Positions 51,397 to 58,492 of a stretch of 64,000 bases of DNA are shown in pieces. Position 1 is the first letter of the stretch; each line of letters opens with the position of its first letter. The stretch lies in the NCBI GenBank assembly GCA_002348365.1, contig DEBC01000130.1, positions 15,224 through 79,223 of the forward strand. The letters are read 5' to 3'. Origin of the DNA: Alphaproteobacteria bacterium UBA2966. GTDB lineage: Bacteria; Pseudomonadota; Alphaproteobacteria; UBA2966. Made by a program: the position numbers and the translations under genes. The notes beneath the pieces were generated by a model. It worked only from the letters and a program-made list of their open reading frames with translations, had not been told where the DNA came from and searched no databases.

Positions 51397-51672
51397 TACC
51401 GAAACATTGCTCCCACCATGACCCCCGACGCGGATTCCTTGGGGGATTCCAGGGAGTTGAAACCGAAGCCGCGCAAAAATGGCAAGAACTCGATTCTCTT
51501 GTCAAGGATTTTTTGTATTAGAATCAATGCGATTTTCAGATTTCCTAATGACAATTCAGAGAATGATCTGAGACCTGATTGGAATTAGGTGACTCAATTT
51601 CTCGTTCTCGATTTCCGAGCCAGATCAACACGTCCGTCGGACGTGACTGCTCTCATAGGGTTAACGGAGGGG

Positions 51673-53070
51673 TCAGGGTGCCGAATCGAAAGATTCGGTG
51701 GTGTAGCGCCACACGCGCAGGTCATCGGCCCAGTAGTCGGGTGTGAAACCTGCCTTGGTTTTTAGATGTTGGAGAAAGATCGGTGCCTCCGGGTAGTGTT
51801 TCCAGACTTGCGGCAGGAACGTAGCCCGCTTCTTTCCATCCTCCAATATCAGTCCGTCGATACCGGGTCGAAGCTTGGCTATCAGATCGTCTTCCGAATT
51901 GAATTTGATGGAGACCGGTATGCTCAGCACGGAAATGCTGAGGTCGACATTGTCGTATTCCTCTGAGGTCAACGGCTGGAATCGGGGATCCTTGAAGGCT
52001 GCCCGAAAAGCGTTCTGAGCGACATCGACTGCCAAAGGTTGATGCGGAACCAGAGATCCGATGCAACCCCGCAGGCGCCCCTCGCATTCCAATGTAACGA
52101 AGCTGGCACGCGGTGCGGACAACCGGGGCGGCAACAGGGTGGTCGACAAGCTGGGTTCCTTGCCCGTGGACAGGCCCGAGCGAATGGCACGGTGTGCGAT
52201 GTCGCCGAGGCGACGCCGGAACCTCTCGGACAGGCGTTGGCGATCCCCCTCTTCGACAATGAATGAACCATAACCGACCACCTTGTCACGGGGCCCTGCG
52301 GTATCGCCCGAATTCCGAAGATCCACCAGCGTGATGCGAAGGTCGCGACGCTGGGCCAGCGCCATGAGACCGCGTATCGGTCGGCCGCCGCAGGCTCCTT
52401 CCGTGGTGACCTTATCCATCTGCAGCATCTGGATCGCCCGACAGGTTGCCTCGTCCATTGAACTTGCCTTGGCGTAGTCGTGGTAGTGGCTGAGATCGGA
52501 ACTGATCACCACCAGCGTTTCCGGGCCGCCCCAAAGCGCGTCCAGTACTCGTGCGACATCCTCGGGAGCCGCGTCACCCACCACGATGGGGACCAGGTTG
52601 AAGTCGCCCAGAATCGTTTGCAGGAAGGGCAGGTGAACTTCCAGGCTGTGTTCCTGCGCGTGTGCCTCATCCATCAGACGGACCTGGGAAAATCCGGCGA
52701 TCTCTGCAATCGCTCGGGCGTCGATGGGAATCGGGCCGAGCGGCGTGACATAGGCCTCGGCGCTCGGCACGGCGAGACCGCTGAAGCCGACCCGGTGAGA
52801 GGGTCCCAGCAGGATCCCCCGATTGACCGTCCCGCGAGCTACCTCCAGGCGCGTGTATACCGAAGCGGCTACCGGACCCGAATAGACGTAACCGGCATGC
52901 GGGGCGATGACCGCCTTGGGCCAGGGCGTATCCGGATCTTCAAGATGGGTTTGGCGTGCTCCGTTCAGATAGGCATCCACCGCAGCCCGCAGTTCGCCCG
53001 GATCTTCTGGATAGAAAAACCCCGCGACGGCCGGCGCTCTGATGTGTTCGAAAGATTCCTGAGTGGCCAT
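51673..53070 (-). CDS. AmmeMemoRadiSam system fusion protein: N-terminal AmrB (MEMO1-like) plus C-terminal AmrA (AMMECR1 domain)
   Basis: N-terminal half is Memo-like (AGFFYPEDPGELRAAVDAYL...VIAPHAGYVYSGPVAASVY...GPSHRV...SSDLSHYH). C-terminal half is AMMECR1-like (ASFVTLECEGRLRGCIGSLVPHQPLAVDVAQNAFRAAFKDPRFQPL). 465 aa from ATG 53070. Confidence 0.8.
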   Translation of the reverse strand: MATQESFEHIRAPAVAGFFYPEDPGELRAAVDAYLNGARQTHLEDPDTPWPKAVIAPHAGYVYSGPVAASVYTRLEVARGTVNRGILLGPSHRVGFSGLAVPSAEAYVTPLGPIPIDARAIAEIAGFSQVRLMDEAHAQEHSLEVHLPFLQTILGDFNLVPIVVGDAAPEDVARVLDALWGGPETLVVISSDLSHYHDYAKASSMDEATCRAIQMLQMDKVTTEGACGGRPIRGLMALAQRRDLRITLVDLRNSGDTAGPRDKVVGYGSFIVEEGDRQRLSERFRRRLGDIAHRAIRSGLSTGKEPSLSTTLLPPRLSAPRASFVTLECEGRLRGCIGSLVPHQPLAVDVAQNAFRAAFKDPRFQPLTSEEYDNVDLSISVLSIPVSIKFNSEDDLIAKLRPGIDGLILEDGKKRATFLPQVWKHYPEAPIFLQHLKTKAGFTPDYWADDLRVWRYTTESFDSAP

Positions 53071-53184
53071 GGTCCCGACCCTCGCCTGCAATCACCGGAC
53101 TTCGGTGCTGTTCCCTCGTATGGGTGGGGCTATGTCACTCTAATGACTGCCCGCAAGCCTGCCAAGTATGCCTCCGAAATTTGA

Positions 53185-54282
53185 CTAAACAGTGGCAACG
53201 GGCGTCACGGGTGAGCCCACGGCGCCCGAGATTCTGAGCGGCGGCGCGGTCAGCAGGAAGCGGCTGCGGCCATTTGACCGCAACCAATCGGCAAGTTCAC
53301 TGAGGTGCCATAGCTCGGCGAGAGGGACCCCCAACCTGAACAGGCAATGTTCGTGCAACGGGAGCCAGGGACGTCGCGCCCCGGGCCCGGAGTCGTCCGG
53401 ATTGGGCAGTAGTGGATCGCACTCCACGGCGAAGTTGTCGGCAATCAGCGCAACGAGTTCGCTGTCCGTGATCCACTGCAGCAGCCGCGCATCCCAGCCG
53501 TTCAATTCAGCATAGGGATTGGGCCGAACGCGTGCGGGATCGGGCGTGCCGCCCATTTCCATCAACATGCGGCCGAAACCCGAGTGCAGCAATACCATGT
53601 CCCCCGACTCAACGACCACGTTGTCGGCTTCCATGATCATCATCAGGTCGTCATAGCCGACCTTTCGGCCCGTCGTGCTGAAATGTGCTTCCAGGTCGAT
53701 CATGACACCGCGACCCTGCACGCAGGCCACCGCAAAATTATCGATACTGAGAGCTTTTGCCTGGGCTCCTTCGTACCGGTCGTAACCGTCAATACCGGTG
53801 TCGGACGTGGGGTCTTGGAAGTGCTAATCCCCGCGATAACCGTTGTAGTAGACGATCTCGGGAACGCCGTCGCCGTCGGCATCGAACATCGAACCGACAA
53901 GCGCCAGGGAATCCCACTGAGAAGAGTATTGAGAGTAGAGAAGGACGATGTCGTCGTTCACGACATCGGTAATCTCCGAGCCTTGGGAGACCGACTCGTG
54001 GTTAAAGCAGGGTCGCCCGTCCCGATCGGGTGTAAAGATGCGCGGCGGATTTCGACGCGGATTGACCGCGTTTCCGCCCGGATAATTGAGAGGAAGACTG
54101 AGGCAGAAATTTAGTCCCTCCCGTACTTCTGCCACGCCCTCGCGGACCTTTTCCGGTGTCAGCAGGTTCAGGCGTCCGATCTGGTCATCGGGGCCGAATT
54201 CGCCCCAAGTGGAACCCTCGGGCCGATTCTTCCAGCGTTGTGCCATGACACCCTCCCTTATCTGCGACAATCTCAACGTCAC
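53185..54282 (-). pseudogene. cyclase-family (PF04199-like, arylformamidase-related) gene interrupted by in-frame TAG at 53824-53826; first gene of the amrAB operon
   Basis: ORFs 53824-54282 (...RLNLLTPEKVREGV...YSQYSSQWDSLALVG...YRGD*) and 53185-53730 are in the same frame (both end coordinates are 0 mod 3) and the sequence is continuous: ...YRGD*HFQDPTSDTGIDGYDRYEGAQAKALSIDNFAVACVQGRGVMIDLEAHF... Confidence 0.7.
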
Positions 54283-54335
54283 CTGTCAGGCGGGCCCTTC
54301 AAAAGCTGCCGCCCCGGTTTCATATATCGTCTAGA

Positions 54336-55511
54336 ATGATGCCAGCGGATGGACCAATGAGCACTGCAGCGACACCGGAAGACGTGATATCGGGCGTCGA
54401 GGGGCGTTACTGGCATGCCCTCGAAGACGGACGGGTTCAGTGTGATGTTTGCCCCAGGTTCTGCAAGCTGAAGGACGGTCAGCGGGGTCTCTGCTTTGTG
54501 CGAGCCAACGACGGCGGCCGCATCGTACTCACGACTTACGGCCGCTCCAGTGGATTCTGCGTCGATCCCATCGAAAAGAAGCCGCTCAATCAATTCCTTC
54601 CCGGTACGCCGGTTTTTTCATTTGGAACGGCGGGCTGCAATTTAACCTGCAAGTTCTGCCAGAATTGGGATATCAGCAAGTCGCGGGAGATCGATACCCT
54701 GGCCGATGCGGCGGCGCCAGAGACATTGGCGGAAGCGGCGCTGCGACTTGGCTGCCGTTCGGTTGCCTACACCTACAACGATCCAACGATATTTCTCGAG
54801 TATGCGGTGGATGTCGCCAAGGCTTGCCATGACGTGGGTGTGAAGTCGGTCGCGGTGACGGCCGGATACATCGCCCCCGAGGCGCGGGAGGAGTTCTACG
54901 CGCACATGGACGCCGCCAACCTCGATCTCAAGGCGTTCACCGAGGACTTCTATCACAAGCTCTGCACGGGAGAGCTTGCCCGGGTTCTCGATACGCTGGT
55001 CTACCTGCGCAACGAAACGGACGTCTGGTTCGAGGTCACGACGCTGCTCATCCCCGGTCAGAACGACTCGTCCGAAGAGATCTACAACATGACGCGTTGG
55101 TTCCTAGACAACCTCGGCTCGAACGTGCCGCTGCACTTCAGTGCGTTTCACCCCGACTATCGAATGCGCGATATTCCCCGCACGCCCCACGGCACACTGA
55201 TCCGGGCCCGGGATATCGCGCTGCGGAACGGCCTCCACTACGTCTATGTCGGCAACGTCCACGACGAGGCCTGCAGCTCGACCTATTGCCCGGGCTGCGG
55301 GGAGAAAGTGATCGGCCGGGACTGGTATCAGTTGACCCACTGGCATCTCGACCCTACCGGCCATTGCCGCTCTTGCGGAATCACCGTATCGGGTGTCTAT
55401 GACGGTCCGCCCGGCGATTGGGGCCGCAAGCGCAAGCCGATTCGACTGATCGATTTTGACAAGCGCCGTCGCTCCGGCTCCATGATCGGTCACAACCGCC
55501 GGCCGGCGTAG
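54336..55511 (+). CDS. AmmeMemoRadiSam system radical SAM enzyme (AmrS)
   Basis: CNLTCKFCQNW (CX3CX2C), preceded by CDVCPRFCKL; Cys-rich C-terminus (CSSTYCPGCGEK...GHCRSCG); divergent from the cyclase-amrAB operon. Confidence 0.85.
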   Translation: MMPADGPMSTAATPEDVISGVEGRYWHALEDGRVQCDVCPRFCKLKDGQRGLCFVRANDGGRIVLTTYGRSSGFCVDPIEKKPLNQFLPGTPVFSFGTAGCNLTCKFCQNWDISKSREIDTLADAAAPETLAEAALRLGCRSVAYTYNDPTIFLEYAVDVAKACHDVGVKSVAVTAGYIAPEAREEFYAHMDAANLDLKAFTEDFYHKLCTGELARVLDTLVYLRNETDVWFEVTTLLIPGQNDSSEEIYNMTRWFLDNLGSNVPLHFSAFHPDYRMRDIPRTPHGTLIRARDIALRNGLHYVYVGNVHDEACSSTYCPGCGEKVIGRDWYQLTHWHLDPTGHCRSCGITVSGVYDGPPGDWGRKRKPIRLIDFDKRRRSGSMIGHNRRPA

Positions 55512-55597
55512 CCCTTACCCGCCTCGTGGTGACCGGCGCCCTCTCCCTCAGGGAGAGGGCAAAGGGAGCATGGCGACCGTGGGTGAGGGGGTGTTCT

Positions 55598-56131
55598 CTA
55601 GTCAGAGCCTCTGGGCGGCGTCTCATCCCCCTCGCCGAGCGCGCGCTGCATGAAGACGGTGTCGACCCATTGGCCGTGTTTGAAGCCGATCGATTGCAGA
55701 GCGCCGACATGGTGGAACCCGGCACGTTCGTGAAGCTTGATCGAGGCCTCATCCTCAGTGACGCCGATGATGGCGACCATCTGGCGGAAGCCCGCCTCTG
55801 TGCACTCATCGATCAAGCGTTCCAGAAGGTTCGAGCCCAATCCTCTCCGCGCCGAATCCGCATCGACGTAGACGGAGTTCTCGACGGCATGGCGATATCC
55901 TGGCCGGACGCGATAGGGGGCTGCGTAGGCATAACCCAGGACCACGCCGTCGACCTCCGCGACCAGGTACGGGAGGCCTCGCTCCTTTACCGCCTCCAAC
56001 CGGCGCTTGAGCTCATTGACGTCGGGCGGTTCTTCCTCGAAGGAAGTCACGCCACTGAGAACGTGGTGGGCGTAGATTCTCTGGATGGCAGGAAGGTCCC
56101 GTTCCTGGGCATCGCGAACCAGTGGAGACAA
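55598..56131 (-). CDS. GNAT N-acetyltransferase (phosphinothricin acetyltransferase-like)
   Basis: ...LVRDAQERDLPAIQRIYAHHVLSGVTSFEEEPP...QMVAIIGVTEDEASIKLHERAGFHHVG. A TTG start near 56131 is more likely than the ORF-track GTG at 56185. Confidence 0.7.
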   Translation of the reverse strand: MSPLVRDAQERDLPAIQRIYAHHVLSGVTSFEEEPPDVNELKRRLEAVKERGLPYLVAEVDGVVLGYAYAAPYRVRPGYRHAVENSVYVDADSARRGLGSNLLERLIDECTEAGFRQMVAIIGVTEDEASIKLHERAGFHHVGALQSIGFKHGQWVDTVFMQRALGEGDETPPRGSD

Positions 56132-56154
56132 TCGCGCGGAGGAGGATGGCGAGG

Positions 56155-57042
56155 TCAGGCGAATTCCGCAATTTCGAGGGCACACAAGGTCTCGATCAGG
56201 CTGGTCATATGTGACTTCACCTTTTCCATGCTTGGCAGGCGGCGAATCTTCGCTTCATCCATGTAGAGCGCCCTGTTGATCTCGATCTGTAGCGCATGGA
56301 TCCCGTCGGCTGGTCGACCGTAGTGACGCGTGATGTAACCCCCGGCATAGGGCGTATTGCGGCGAACGGTGTAGCCCAGCGAAGTCAATATCTCCTCTGC
56401 CGCATCCGTCAGACTCGGGTGGCAACTTGTGCCGTAGCGGTCGCCGAGCACGATCTCAGCCCGTTCGTGCCCCGAGTCCCGGTCCATCGGACCACCCACA
56501 GACGGCATCGAATGACAATCGACGAGGACGGCATGTTTGAACTTGCGGCGGGTCGACTCCAACAGATCGGCCAGCGCCCGGTGATAGGGCAGGTAGAGCT
56601 CATTGACGCGACGCACAGCCTCGGCGAATTGCAGTTTGCCGCCGTAAATCTCGGCGCCGCTCGAAACCACTCTTGCAATGGTTCCGAGCCCTCCAGCGAC
56701 CCGGTAGGAGCGGGTATTCACATAGTCGGGGAGGTCATCCTCGAACATGGCAGGGTCCAGTTCCCAGGCCTCACGATTGACGTCGAGATAGGCCCGCGGG
56801 AAATTCGCCCGGATCAGGGGAACTCCCTGTGCCGGAGCTTCTCCGAACAGTTCGTCGACGAAGCTGTCTTCCGATTTTCTCAGGCTGTGGGCATCGAGGC
56901 GAGAGGCGGCGAGCAGGTCGTCCGGGTACTCCGAACCGCTGTGGGGTGAAGCGAACACAAGCGGTGACGACGCCGCTCTCGGTGCCAACACGTCGAACGG
57001 GGCTGGGGTTAATTCGATCGCCGCTTCAGGCACAGCCGCCAT
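56155..57042 (-). CDS. N-formylglutamate amidohydrolase family protein
   Basis: 295 aa (...LVFASPHSGSEYPDDL...VLVDCHSMPS...) resembling FGase/HutG-like zinc hydrolases. Confidence 0.75.
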   Translation of the reverse strand: MAAVPEAAIELTPAPFDVLAPRAASSPLVFASPHSGSEYPDDLLAASRLDAHSLRKSEDSFVDELFGEAPAQGVPLIRANFPRAYLDVNREAWELDPAMFEDDLPDYVNTRSYRVAGGLGTIARVVSSGAEIYGGKLQFAEAVRRVNELYLPYHRALADLLESTRRKFKHAVLVDCHSMPSVGGPMDRDSGHERAEIVLGDRYGTSCHPSLTDAAEEILTSLGYTVRRNTPYAGGYITRHYGRPADGIHALQIEINRALYMDEAKIRRLPSMEKVKSHMTSLIETLCALEIAEFA

Positions 57043-57259: not shown

Positions 57260-57334
57260 GGGCGCGTAGCTCAGCGGGAGAGCACCTCGGTGACATCGAG
57301 GGGGTCGTAAGTTCAATCCTTACCGCGCCCACCA
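57260..57334 (+). tRNA. tRNA-Val (anticodon GAC), CCA encoded
   Basis: GGGCGCGTAGCTCAGCGGGAGAGCACCTCGGTGACATCGAGGGGGTCGTAAGTTCAATCCTTACCGCGCCCACCA. Cloverleaf with 7-bp acceptor stem, anticodon stem CCTCG/CGAGG and loop gTGACat. Confidence 0.9.
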
Positions 57335-57370: not shown

Positions 57371-58492
57371 ATGGTTGACCTTGCTGTCGCGACTGCGGAC
57401 GGGTCCCCTGATCATTCCCTCACCATTCGCGGCCTGAAGGTTCGACCTGTCGACGTGCCCCTGGAAGACCCGGTGGTCACAGCGAGCGGTACGGTCTCCT
57501 CGGCACCGCTGGTCCTGGTCGACCTGCTGACCCGGGAAGGCATCACCGGCCGCGGGTACATCTTCACCTATTCGCCGGCCGCGCTGCTGCCCACTGCGCG
57601 GCTGGTTCAGAACATGGCTGCCATGATCGAGGGAGAGTCAGTGGCGCCGCACGATCTCGATCGGCTCCTGCAGCAGCGCTTTCGCCTGCTCGGCGCGGAG
57701 GGTCTGACGGGTATGGCGATGGCGGGCATCGACATGGCGGCGTGGGATGCGCTGGCGCAAGCGCGGAACATGCCGCTCGCGGAGTTGCTGGGTGGTGCCT
57801 GCAAGCCGACCCCGTCCTACTACAGCGCAGGCATGATTGATGAGCCCGAGGCCGAACGTCTCATCGAGAAGTCACTTGGCATGGGATTCCGGGCCTTCAA
57901 GGTCAAGGTCGGCTATCCCAGCGTGGAAGCGGATCGCCGTATCATCCGCTTCATACGACGGCTGGTGGGGGACGAGTTTGAGCTCATGATCGATTTCAAT
58001 CAGAGCCTGGACGCACCCGAAGCCGAATCCCGCACCCGGGCACTCGCGTCGGAGAACCTGACCTGGATCGAGGAACCGCTGCTTCACCATGACTTCGCCG
58101 GACACAGCGCCGTGCGCCGAAAGGTCAAGACGCCAATTCAGATCGGAGAGAACTGGTGGGGCATACCCGATATGACCAAGAGCCTTGCGGCAGGTGCTTC
58201 CGATCTCTGCATGCCCGATGCGATGAAGATCGGTGGTGTCACGGGCTGGATGAAGGCGGCGGCGCTGGCAGGCGCCCACGGCATGCCCATGTCTTCACAT
58301 CTGTTCGTCGAGGTTAGCGCTCATCTGTTGGCTGTAACACCGACAGCGCATTGGCATGAATACCTTGATTTGGCCAAGCCCGTCCTTCAGCGCCCTCTGG
58401 AGATCCGCGATGGCGATGCCATTCCCTCGGATGAACCGGGTACCGGGGTCGATTGGGACGAGGATTCCGTGGGGCGCTATCTGGTCGACTGA
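57371..58492 (+). CDS. mandelate racemase / muconate lactonizing enzyme (enolase superfamily) protein
   Basis: 373 aa; capping domain plus TIM-barrel with metal ligands (KVKVG...DFNQS...EEP...). Confidence 0.8.
   Translation: MVDLAVATADGSPDHSLTIRGLKVRPVDVPLEDPVVTASGTVSSAPLVLVDLLTREGITGRGYIFTYSPAALLPTARLVQNMAAMIEGESVAPHDLDRLLQQRFRLLGAEGLTGMAMAGIDMAAWDALAQARNMPLAELLGGACKPTPSYYSAGMIDEPEAERLIEKSLGMGFRAFKVKVGYPSVEADRRIIRFIRRLVGDEFELMIDFNQSLDAPEAESRTRALASENLTWIEEPLLHHDFAGHSAVRRKVKTPIQIGENWWGIPDMTKSLAAGASDLCMPDAMKIGGVTGWMKAAALAGAHGMPMSSHLFVEVSAHLLAVTPTAHWHEYLDLAKPVLQRPLEIRDGDAIPSDEPGTGVDWDEDSVGRYLVD

Follow-up and report, generated by a model that had tools for sequence, protein, structure and literature searches.

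The AmmeMemoRadiSam (Amr) system is defined by three proteins, the Memo-like AmrB, the AMMECR1-domain protein AmrA and the radical S-adenosylmethionine (SAM) enzyme AmrS. AMMECR1 is reported as a persistent neighbour of a ring-opening dioxygenase, to which it is also found fused, and of a radical SAM enzyme; RNA base modification was proposed as the target of such neighbourhoods (Balaji & Aravind, 2007; PMC2034487). This prediction is all that we found on function in the searchable literature, which yielded no experimental function for the system. Both the gene set and the fusion of B with A are already known and catalogued. The system is widespread, with the human homologues MEMO1 and AMMECR1, and any additional partner conserved beside it would have been of great help towards its still unsolved function. 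The Amr locus considered here lies in a 64,000-nucleotide stretch (the window) of contig DEBC01000130.1 from Alphaproteobacteria bacterium UBA2966. The window belongs to a 245-kb contig from the Tara Oceans marine metagenomes, and proteins nearly identical to its own carry labels of uncultured Alphaproteobacteria. A preliminary description of the window had placed a cyclase-family (PF04199) gene at the head of an operon with a fused amrBA gene, and had suggested that the cyclase takes part in whatever substrate maturation the Amr proteins perform. The reading at which we arrive instead, with a probability of roughly 85%, is that of a known Amr module with the cyclase as an incidental, decaying passenger.

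The Amr locus is a standard two-gene AmmeMemoRadiSam module, consisting of a divergent amrS and a fused amrBA with all three domains intact (Table 1). The recognition of the three hallmark proteins, with AmrB and AmrA joined in a product of 465 residues, is borne out by matches to TIGR04335, TIGR04336 and TIGR04337, all above their cut-offs. AmrBA scores 258.7 bits against TIGR04336 (AmrB; cut-off 26), with residues 11-272 covering positions 1-270 of the 270 in the model, and 197.2 bits in a full-length match to TIGR04335 (AmrA; cut-off 99) over residues 288-461. With the Pfam models the scores are 171 bits for Memo (residues 13-270) and 153 bits for AMMECR1 (residues 291-461). AmrS reaches 639.3 bits against TIGR04337 (cut-off 220), covering model positions 2-349 of 349, and 65.6 bits against the Pfam Radical_SAM family; its translation shows the CX3CX2C motif as CNLTCKFC. 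An AlphaFold2 model of AmrBA was obtained with a predicted local distance difference test score (pLDDT) of 92.4 and a predicted template modelling score (pTM) of 0.90. In Foldseek comparisons of this model the TM-score on the target is 0.78 for MEMO1 (7kq8/3bcz) and 0.81 for the AMMECR1 protein PH0010 (1vaj), and the AMMECR1 half also matches 1ZQ7 and 1WSC. In an alignment of 32 homologues little or no variation is seen in the motifs APHAGY, GPSHR, SSDLSHY, GACG and LRGCIG, and the cysteine of the last of these, Cys336, is found in all 32.

According to the preliminary description, the adjacency of cyclase and amr genes would probably be incidental if cyclase genes were not enriched beside amr genes in other genomes and the fusion of A and B were rare. 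The fusion turned out to be common. AmrBA relatives were surveyed with one genome per species, giving at least 599 stretches that encode one, and the best 80 species loci, from Alpha-, Beta- and Gammaproteobacteria and some other phyla, were examined with 10 kb on either side. A single match spans both the B and the A domain in 76 of these 80 loci, and both Pfam domains are present in all of the 120 best AmrBA database matches out of 8000 scored; several sources already name the best matches "AmmeMemoRadiSam system protein B / protein A". Fusion is the dominant form in Pseudomonadota. Cultured organisms with the fused form include Magnetospirillum molischianum (L074; L numbers denote the loci compared), Roseospira marina (L057) and Roseateles (L072). 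In four gammaproteobacterial loci (L077, L079, L082 and L083) amrB apparently stands as a separate gene directly before amrA, which it slightly overlaps, as in L079 (10001-10816 and 10758-11345), and these may represent an unfused precursor state or a frameshift. The amrS gene lies less than 400 bp from amrBA in 60 of the 80 loci. In 28 of these it is upstream and divergent; in the others it shares the amrBA strand and is located downstream (30 loci) or upstream (two loci). Beyond these two genes nothing recurs: clustering of three genes on each side of the 80 loci gave no recurrent neighbour, the largest cluster being a response regulator in nine loci, and 183 families, each with at most four members, were recorded in a Pfam census of the 150 immediate neighbours. 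Across 80 species the Amr system is thus a self-contained module of amrS and amrBA without a recurrent third neighbour.

Cyclase genes were not enriched beside amr genes. No cyclase homologue was found in any of the 80 amrBA species loci, either by tblastn (E ≤ 1e-5) or with a hidden Markov model of the cyclase subfamily (E ≤ 1), and PF04199 is not among the families listed in the Pfam census of immediate neighbours. In the reverse direction, 80 metagenome loci of the cyclase subfamily were retrieved, and none of the 77 with 54-62% identity has an amr gene beside the cyclase. The neighbours in these 77 loci are varied catabolic genes, among them GMC oxidoreductase, SDR, amidase, branched-chain ABC transporter and acyl-CoA enzyme genes; clustering placed at most nine of 70 loci together, and the contexts suggest catabolism in general and no specific function. 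A cyclase between amrS and amrBA occurs in only one uncultured marine alphaproteobacterial clade. The clade members with this linkage are the species of the window (L085 and L173-L177), a group with 82-85% cyclase identity (L002, L086, L087 and L168-L172) and a more distant one with 67% (L165-L167). The gene order shared by these loci is FGase-GNAT-amrS-cyclase-amrBA-M23 peptidase-ClpB-DUF4167-PrmC, where FGase stands for an N-formylglutamate amidohydrolase family gene. Since the whole neighbourhood is equally syntenic, the conserved position of the cyclase follows from vertical descent and needs no functional explanation.

In the window the cyclase is, moreover, a fixed pseudogene. As the preliminary description had it, a PF04199 match carrying a single amber stop lies on the amrBA strand with 114 bp between its own stop codon and the amrBA start. 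The reading frame (54282..53185 on the minus strand) contains exactly one internal stop, the TAG at codon 141, and no frameshift. Against PF04199 (cut-off 23.1) the piece after the stop scores 29.7 bits and the repaired full-length product 33.2 bits, compared with 42.5-52.6 bits for the intact orthologues. These orthologues, of 353-374 residues, have a threonine codon (ACG or ACT) at position 141, two nucleotide changes away from TAG. Residue 116 is leucine (CTT) in the window's species, whereas all 18 further sequences of the alignment have the histidine that ends the motif QYSTQWDSLAH. Counting four more changes, the window cyclase departs from the subfamily at five positions that are invariant elsewhere in it, which is only a modestly high count. 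The amber codon and Leu116 are common to seven assemblies of the species from different samples, the other six (L085 and L173-L177) differing from the window by 0-5 nucleotides within the cyclase gene; the amber stop is therefore real and not an assembly error. The window holds no second cyclase copy able to compensate. In pairwise comparison with relatives the ratio of non-synonymous to synonymous substitution rates (dN/dS) of the window cyclase is about 0.05, like that of neighbouring genes, with dS saturated, and such a comparison is unable to show relaxed selection. That dN/dS is still low suggests that inactivation was recent relative to the divergence of the clade species.

The cyclase subfamily, which falls in the PF04199 superfamily of putative cyclases, kynurenine formamidases and isatin hydrolases, comprises proteins of about 350 residues, with about 8000 database matches near 60% identity. 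Its members are marked by the invariant motifs QYSTQWDSLAH and LPLHEHCLF...PPLRLPGAVGSP. Kynurenine formamidases carry the histidine-rich metal-binding motif HxGTHxDxPxH. The stretch that would correspond to it is QYSTQWDSLAH in the subfamily but QYSSQWDSLAL in the window. With the subfamily profile as query, neither kynurenine formamidases nor isatin hydrolases of solved structure were matched in the PDB up to an E-value of 10. The label "kynurenine formamidase" on cyclase homologues is an automatic, unverified annotation, and reading the gene as an arylformamidase is unsupported.

Inside the clade the cyclase has been lost on three separate occasions, by inactivation or by deletion. One loss is that of the window's species, where TAG at codon 141 is combined with the change of His116 to leucine. 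Another concerns five assemblies (L168-L172) with 94% nucleotide identity to the intact L002, in which a 137-bp insertion splits the gene at nucleotide 613 and codon 314 is changed from TGG to TAG besides. In L003, whose AmrBA is 83% identical, the cyclase is deleted and amrS and amrBA are adjacent with a spacer of 218 bp. This spacer retains, at L003:7833-7889, the last 18 codons of the cyclase, PLRLPGTRGLPVTAVAAV, followed by a stop; the remnant agrees with the C-terminal consensus of the family at 14 of 20 positions, a value that none of 20000 shuffles reached (maximum 9). The amrBA gene is intact in all three lineages, as is amrS in all contigs from them except L170, where a DDE_3 transposase gene replaces it. 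Independent destructive lesions in sister lineages indicate that the cyclase is dispensable in the clade. Together with the absence of co-occurrence (0/80 and 0/77 loci), the three losses in lineages that keep amrBA intact speak against the proposed part of the cyclase in Amr substrate maturation, and it is very unlikely that the cyclase belongs to the Amr system. As a by-product, the locus offers a clean example of one gene decaying in three separate ways in an otherwise conserved neighbourhood.

The 137-bp insertion (L168:4613-4749, and likewise in L169-L172) is flanked by a CTAGAG direct repeat and has internal inverted repeats, resembling a miniature inverted-repeat transposable element. 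In the same genomes several transposase genes (DUF772/DDE_Tnp_1, IS1595, DDE_3 and Transposase_mut) lie around the amr locus. Two unrelated genomes have a gene on the amrBA strand in the slot between amrS and amrBA, an arginine-deiminase/DDAH-like gene in one (L034:8933-9976) and an AAA ATPase gene in the other (L056:8562-9680). The divergent amrS-amrBA intergenic region seems to tolerate insertions and to have been occupied more than once.

The 114-bp gap between the cyclase and amrBA contains a block that aligns throughout the clade, the cyclase-less L003 included. In its core the window is 68-79% identical to closer relatives and 50% identical to the most distant, L165, compared with 36-41% at fourfold-degenerate sites of the adjacent amrBA. 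Inside the block is the only sigma-70-like match in 51400..55700, TTGGCA and TAGAGT separated by 17 nucleotides. As the block is conserved above the level of fourfold-degenerate sites and is kept in L003, amrBA probably has its own promoter; this call is made because of the conservation only and not because of the match to the consensus. It would seem probable from these alignments that the block is a working promoter or operator of amrBA. The cyclase had been taken for the first gene of the operon, and with a conserved promoter-like block directly before amrBA a cyclase promoter would not be needed. An RNA structure in the block is not supported, since RNAalifold found no helix that was convincing and the covariation term was unfavourable (+1.6), and the block matches no Rfam family. 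It additionally carries a CCCxCCCATA...GGGA stretch. The upstream motif TTAGAGTGA was considered as a general Amr operator and rejected, as beyond the clade L045 and L083 alone contain it, in both cases on the other strand and at a distance from the start of amrBA; it would rather be a regulatory sequence specific to the clade. The constrained block is a testable candidate for the regulation of the Amr system.

How far the cyclase can still be regarded as a true accessory enzyme of Amr, the first gene of a cyclase-amrBA operon that processes the substrate or product of AmrS and AmrBA at least in this clade, depends on what is made of its position. It lies on the amrBA strand 114 bp upstream, with no terminator-like site found between the two genes, and every clade member that has the gene keeps it there, under purifying selection where it is intact. 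Intact copies (L002, L086, L087 and L165-167) hold this position down to 67% protein identity with a low dN/dS of about 0.05-0.2, which together mark the cyclase as a working gene in these loci. This weighs against a mere passenger, as do several further points. The reverse survey, with no amr gene in 77 loci, included many short metagenome contigs, some of whose flanks were unable to show an amr gene; the one match to the sigma-70 consensus compares with 1.2 expected by chance in the region; with dS saturated, the inactivation can be dated only roughly as recent; and the mechanism suggested below for the Amr proteins is drawn from family relationships. From the sequence alone a functional tie of the intact cyclase to Amr that is specific to the clade is still conceivable. 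Position, however, follows from vertical descent, given that ClpB, the M23 peptidase and PrmC are just as syntenic, and the accessory role is further contradicted by the absence of the cyclase from all 80 amrBA loci and of amr genes from all 77 cyclase loci, by the three independent losses in which amrBA always stayed intact (and amrS did so except in one contig), and by the constrained promoter-like block between the cyclase and amrBA, which is kept even in the lineage without the cyclase. We consider this role very improbable. In a more specific version, the cyclase, which resembles the uncharacterized protein of PDB entry 5IBZ, would have become an accessory step of the Amr pathway peculiar to this lineage, for example the hydrolysis of an amide or formyl intermediate, and its losses would mark a change of substrate and not irrelevance; this is speculative and very improbable. 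Were it true, the intact orthologues P0121 and P0123 would give a chemical clue to the substrate of AmrS and AmrBA.

It might also be argued that the amber codon is no lesion at all, being either a sequencing or assembly error or subject to suppression or programmed read-through that yields full-length cyclase, as it is a single in-frame stop without a frameshift in a gene whose dN/dS against relatives is as low as that of amrBA and amrS. This is extremely improbable. TAG recurs in seven assemblies that differ in sample and pipeline and is therefore no error; the orthologues have threonine codons two changes away; and the allele with TAG also carries Leu116 in place of the histidine and four more deviations at invariant positions. 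No suppressor tRNA is encoded within the window, where the only tRNA is a tRNA-Val, and sister lineages have independent destructive lesions. We give as little credence to the idea that FGase and the GNAT acetyltransferase, and not the cyclase, are functionally linked to Amr in a small cluster for the processing of amides or N-acyl amino acids. Both genes adjoin amrS across the clade, and FGase genes are also found beside amr genes in L004 (L004:6560-7519, directly upstream of amrBA) and L010 (L010:6463-7332, near amrS), but nowhere else. In the 80 surveyed loci tblastn detected an FGase homologue once (L010) and a GNAT homologue not at all, neither family is among the recurrent neighbours, and the clade member L003 has no FGase beside amrS. 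The association of these two genes with amrS is probably lineage gene order.

With the cyclase taken as an incidental passenger, the history of the locus may be pictured as follows. An ancestor of the marine alphaproteobacterial clade would have acquired a PF04199 gene, closest to 5IBZ, in the amrS-amrBA intergenic region, and the gene would then have been inherited vertically along with the surrounding gene order, while amrBA would have kept a constrained region with a promoter of its own in the gap that follows the cyclase. As to the module itself, family relationships and the earlier analysis (Balaji & Aravind, 2007) suggest that AmrS may generate a 5'-deoxyadenosyl radical and abstract a hydrogen from the substrate. 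The AMMECR1 domain, with the conserved exposed cysteine of LRGCIG, may bind or carry this substrate, and the Memo domain, with a metal site of the LigB/extradiol-dioxygenase type, could carry out a metal-dependent redox or ring-opening step; fusion of B and A would hold the two domains in a fixed geometry. The cyclase does not provide the clue that a conserved extra partner would have given, and the finding matters little beyond correct annotation.

Table 1. Coordinates of the features at and around the Amr locus in the window.
Feature	Position	Strand	Description
amrBA	51673..53070	-	465 aa, fused AmrB (Memo-like, ~11-272) and AmrA (AMMECR1, ~288-461); intact
Conserved non-coding block upstream of amrBA	53071..53184	-	core 53120..53165; holds the sigma-70-like match 53165..53137
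Cyclase-family (PF04199) pseudogene	53185..54246	-	353 codons; TAG at 53826..53824 (codon 141), Leu116 at 53901..53899
amrS	54336..55511	+	intact; encodes the radical SAM enzyme; divergent from amrBA and the cyclase
GNAT acetyltransferase	55598..56185	-	convergent with amrS; neighbour outside the Amr system
FGase (N-formylglutamate amidohydrolase family)	56155..57042	-	convergent with amrS; neighbour outside the Amr system
tRNA-Val (anticodon GAC)	57260..57334	+	between the FGase gene and the mandelate racemase/muconate-lactonizing-enzyme family gene
Mandelate racemase/muconate-lactonizing-enzyme family gene	57371..58492		

The start codons used in Table 1 differ in part from those of the longest open reading frames. 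For amrBA (open reading frame 51673..53091 on the minus strand) the ATG at 53070 is preferred, being supported by orthologues. The ATG at 54246 corresponds to the start of the cyclase orthologues and is preceded by the Shine-Dalgarno sequence GGGAGGG, and amrS has an alternative start at 54357, which is used in the public gene call (384 residues). The divergent arrangement of amrS and the cyclase was correctly described at the outset, but the 54-bp intergenic region that they were said to share was not: a gap of 53 bp is obtained with the longest frames (GTG at 54282 for the cyclase, ATG at 54336 for amrS), while the real start codons are 89 bp apart, or 110 bp with the alternative start of amrS. 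Only the 1.06-kb cyclase pseudogene keeps amrS and amrBA apart. A plasmid search of the locus by megablast gave zero matches, and so there is no sign of the locus being mobile. An Rfam scan of the whole window identified the tRNA-Val as the only RNA gene. Downstream of amrS, coordinates and Pfam matches agree with the convergent GNAT and FGase genes of the preliminary description. FGase scores 263.6 bits against PF05013 and 116 bits against TIGR02017 (hutG), compared with a cut-off of 279 for the latter. The GNAT protein matches the Pfam families Acetyltransf_4/1 and resembles phosphinothricin and arsinothricin N-acetyltransferases, with scores for the ArsN1b and phosphinothricin acetyltransferase models that stay below the cut-offs. 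FGase overlaps the start of the GNAT gene by 31 bp, and both accompany amrS in the clade.

Among proteins of known structure, the only solved relative of the cyclase subfamily is 5IBZ. The window cyclase aligns with it end to end, with an E-value of 9e-25 for the single sequence and 3e-42 for the subfamily profile, and the two have the QxSTQWDxLxH and HxH-type motifs in common; the window copy differs in being a pseudogene, with its TAG and the change of His116 to leucine. For AmrS the next-nearest named families after TIGR04337 are the glycyl-radical-enzyme activases (PflA TIGR02493, the YjjW activase and NrdG), which have the same CX3CX2C core. AmrS scores 37-53 bits against these models, whose cut-offs are 131-250, and therefore falls outside these families; genes for a glycyl-radical enzyme are absent near amrS.

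The Memo half of AmrBA matches the fold of human MEMO1 (PDB 7KQ8, 7L5C and 3BCZ), and the metal-site motifs APHAGY, GPSH and SSDxxH align; in AmrBA the metal-site residues of the Memo domain are His58, His92, His195 and Cys227. The other half similarly matches the fold of the archaeal AMMECR1 proteins PH0010 (1VAJ), MM0484 (1ZQ7) and ST0229 (1WSC), with which the LRGCIG cysteine aligns. Sequence identity to these solved proteins is just 23-36%, and whereas they are separate polypeptides AmrBA is one chain with a short linker. The closest described system remains AmmeMemoRadiSam itself. All three of its models (TIGR04335, TIGR04336 and TIGR04337) are matched over their full length and far above cut-off by co-located domains, the B-A order of the fusion is that of the best database matches, and the divergent layout of amrS and amrBA recurs in 28 of the 80 species. 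The sole difference is the extra cyclase pseudogene that stands between amrS and amrBA in the window, a feature specific to this marine clade.

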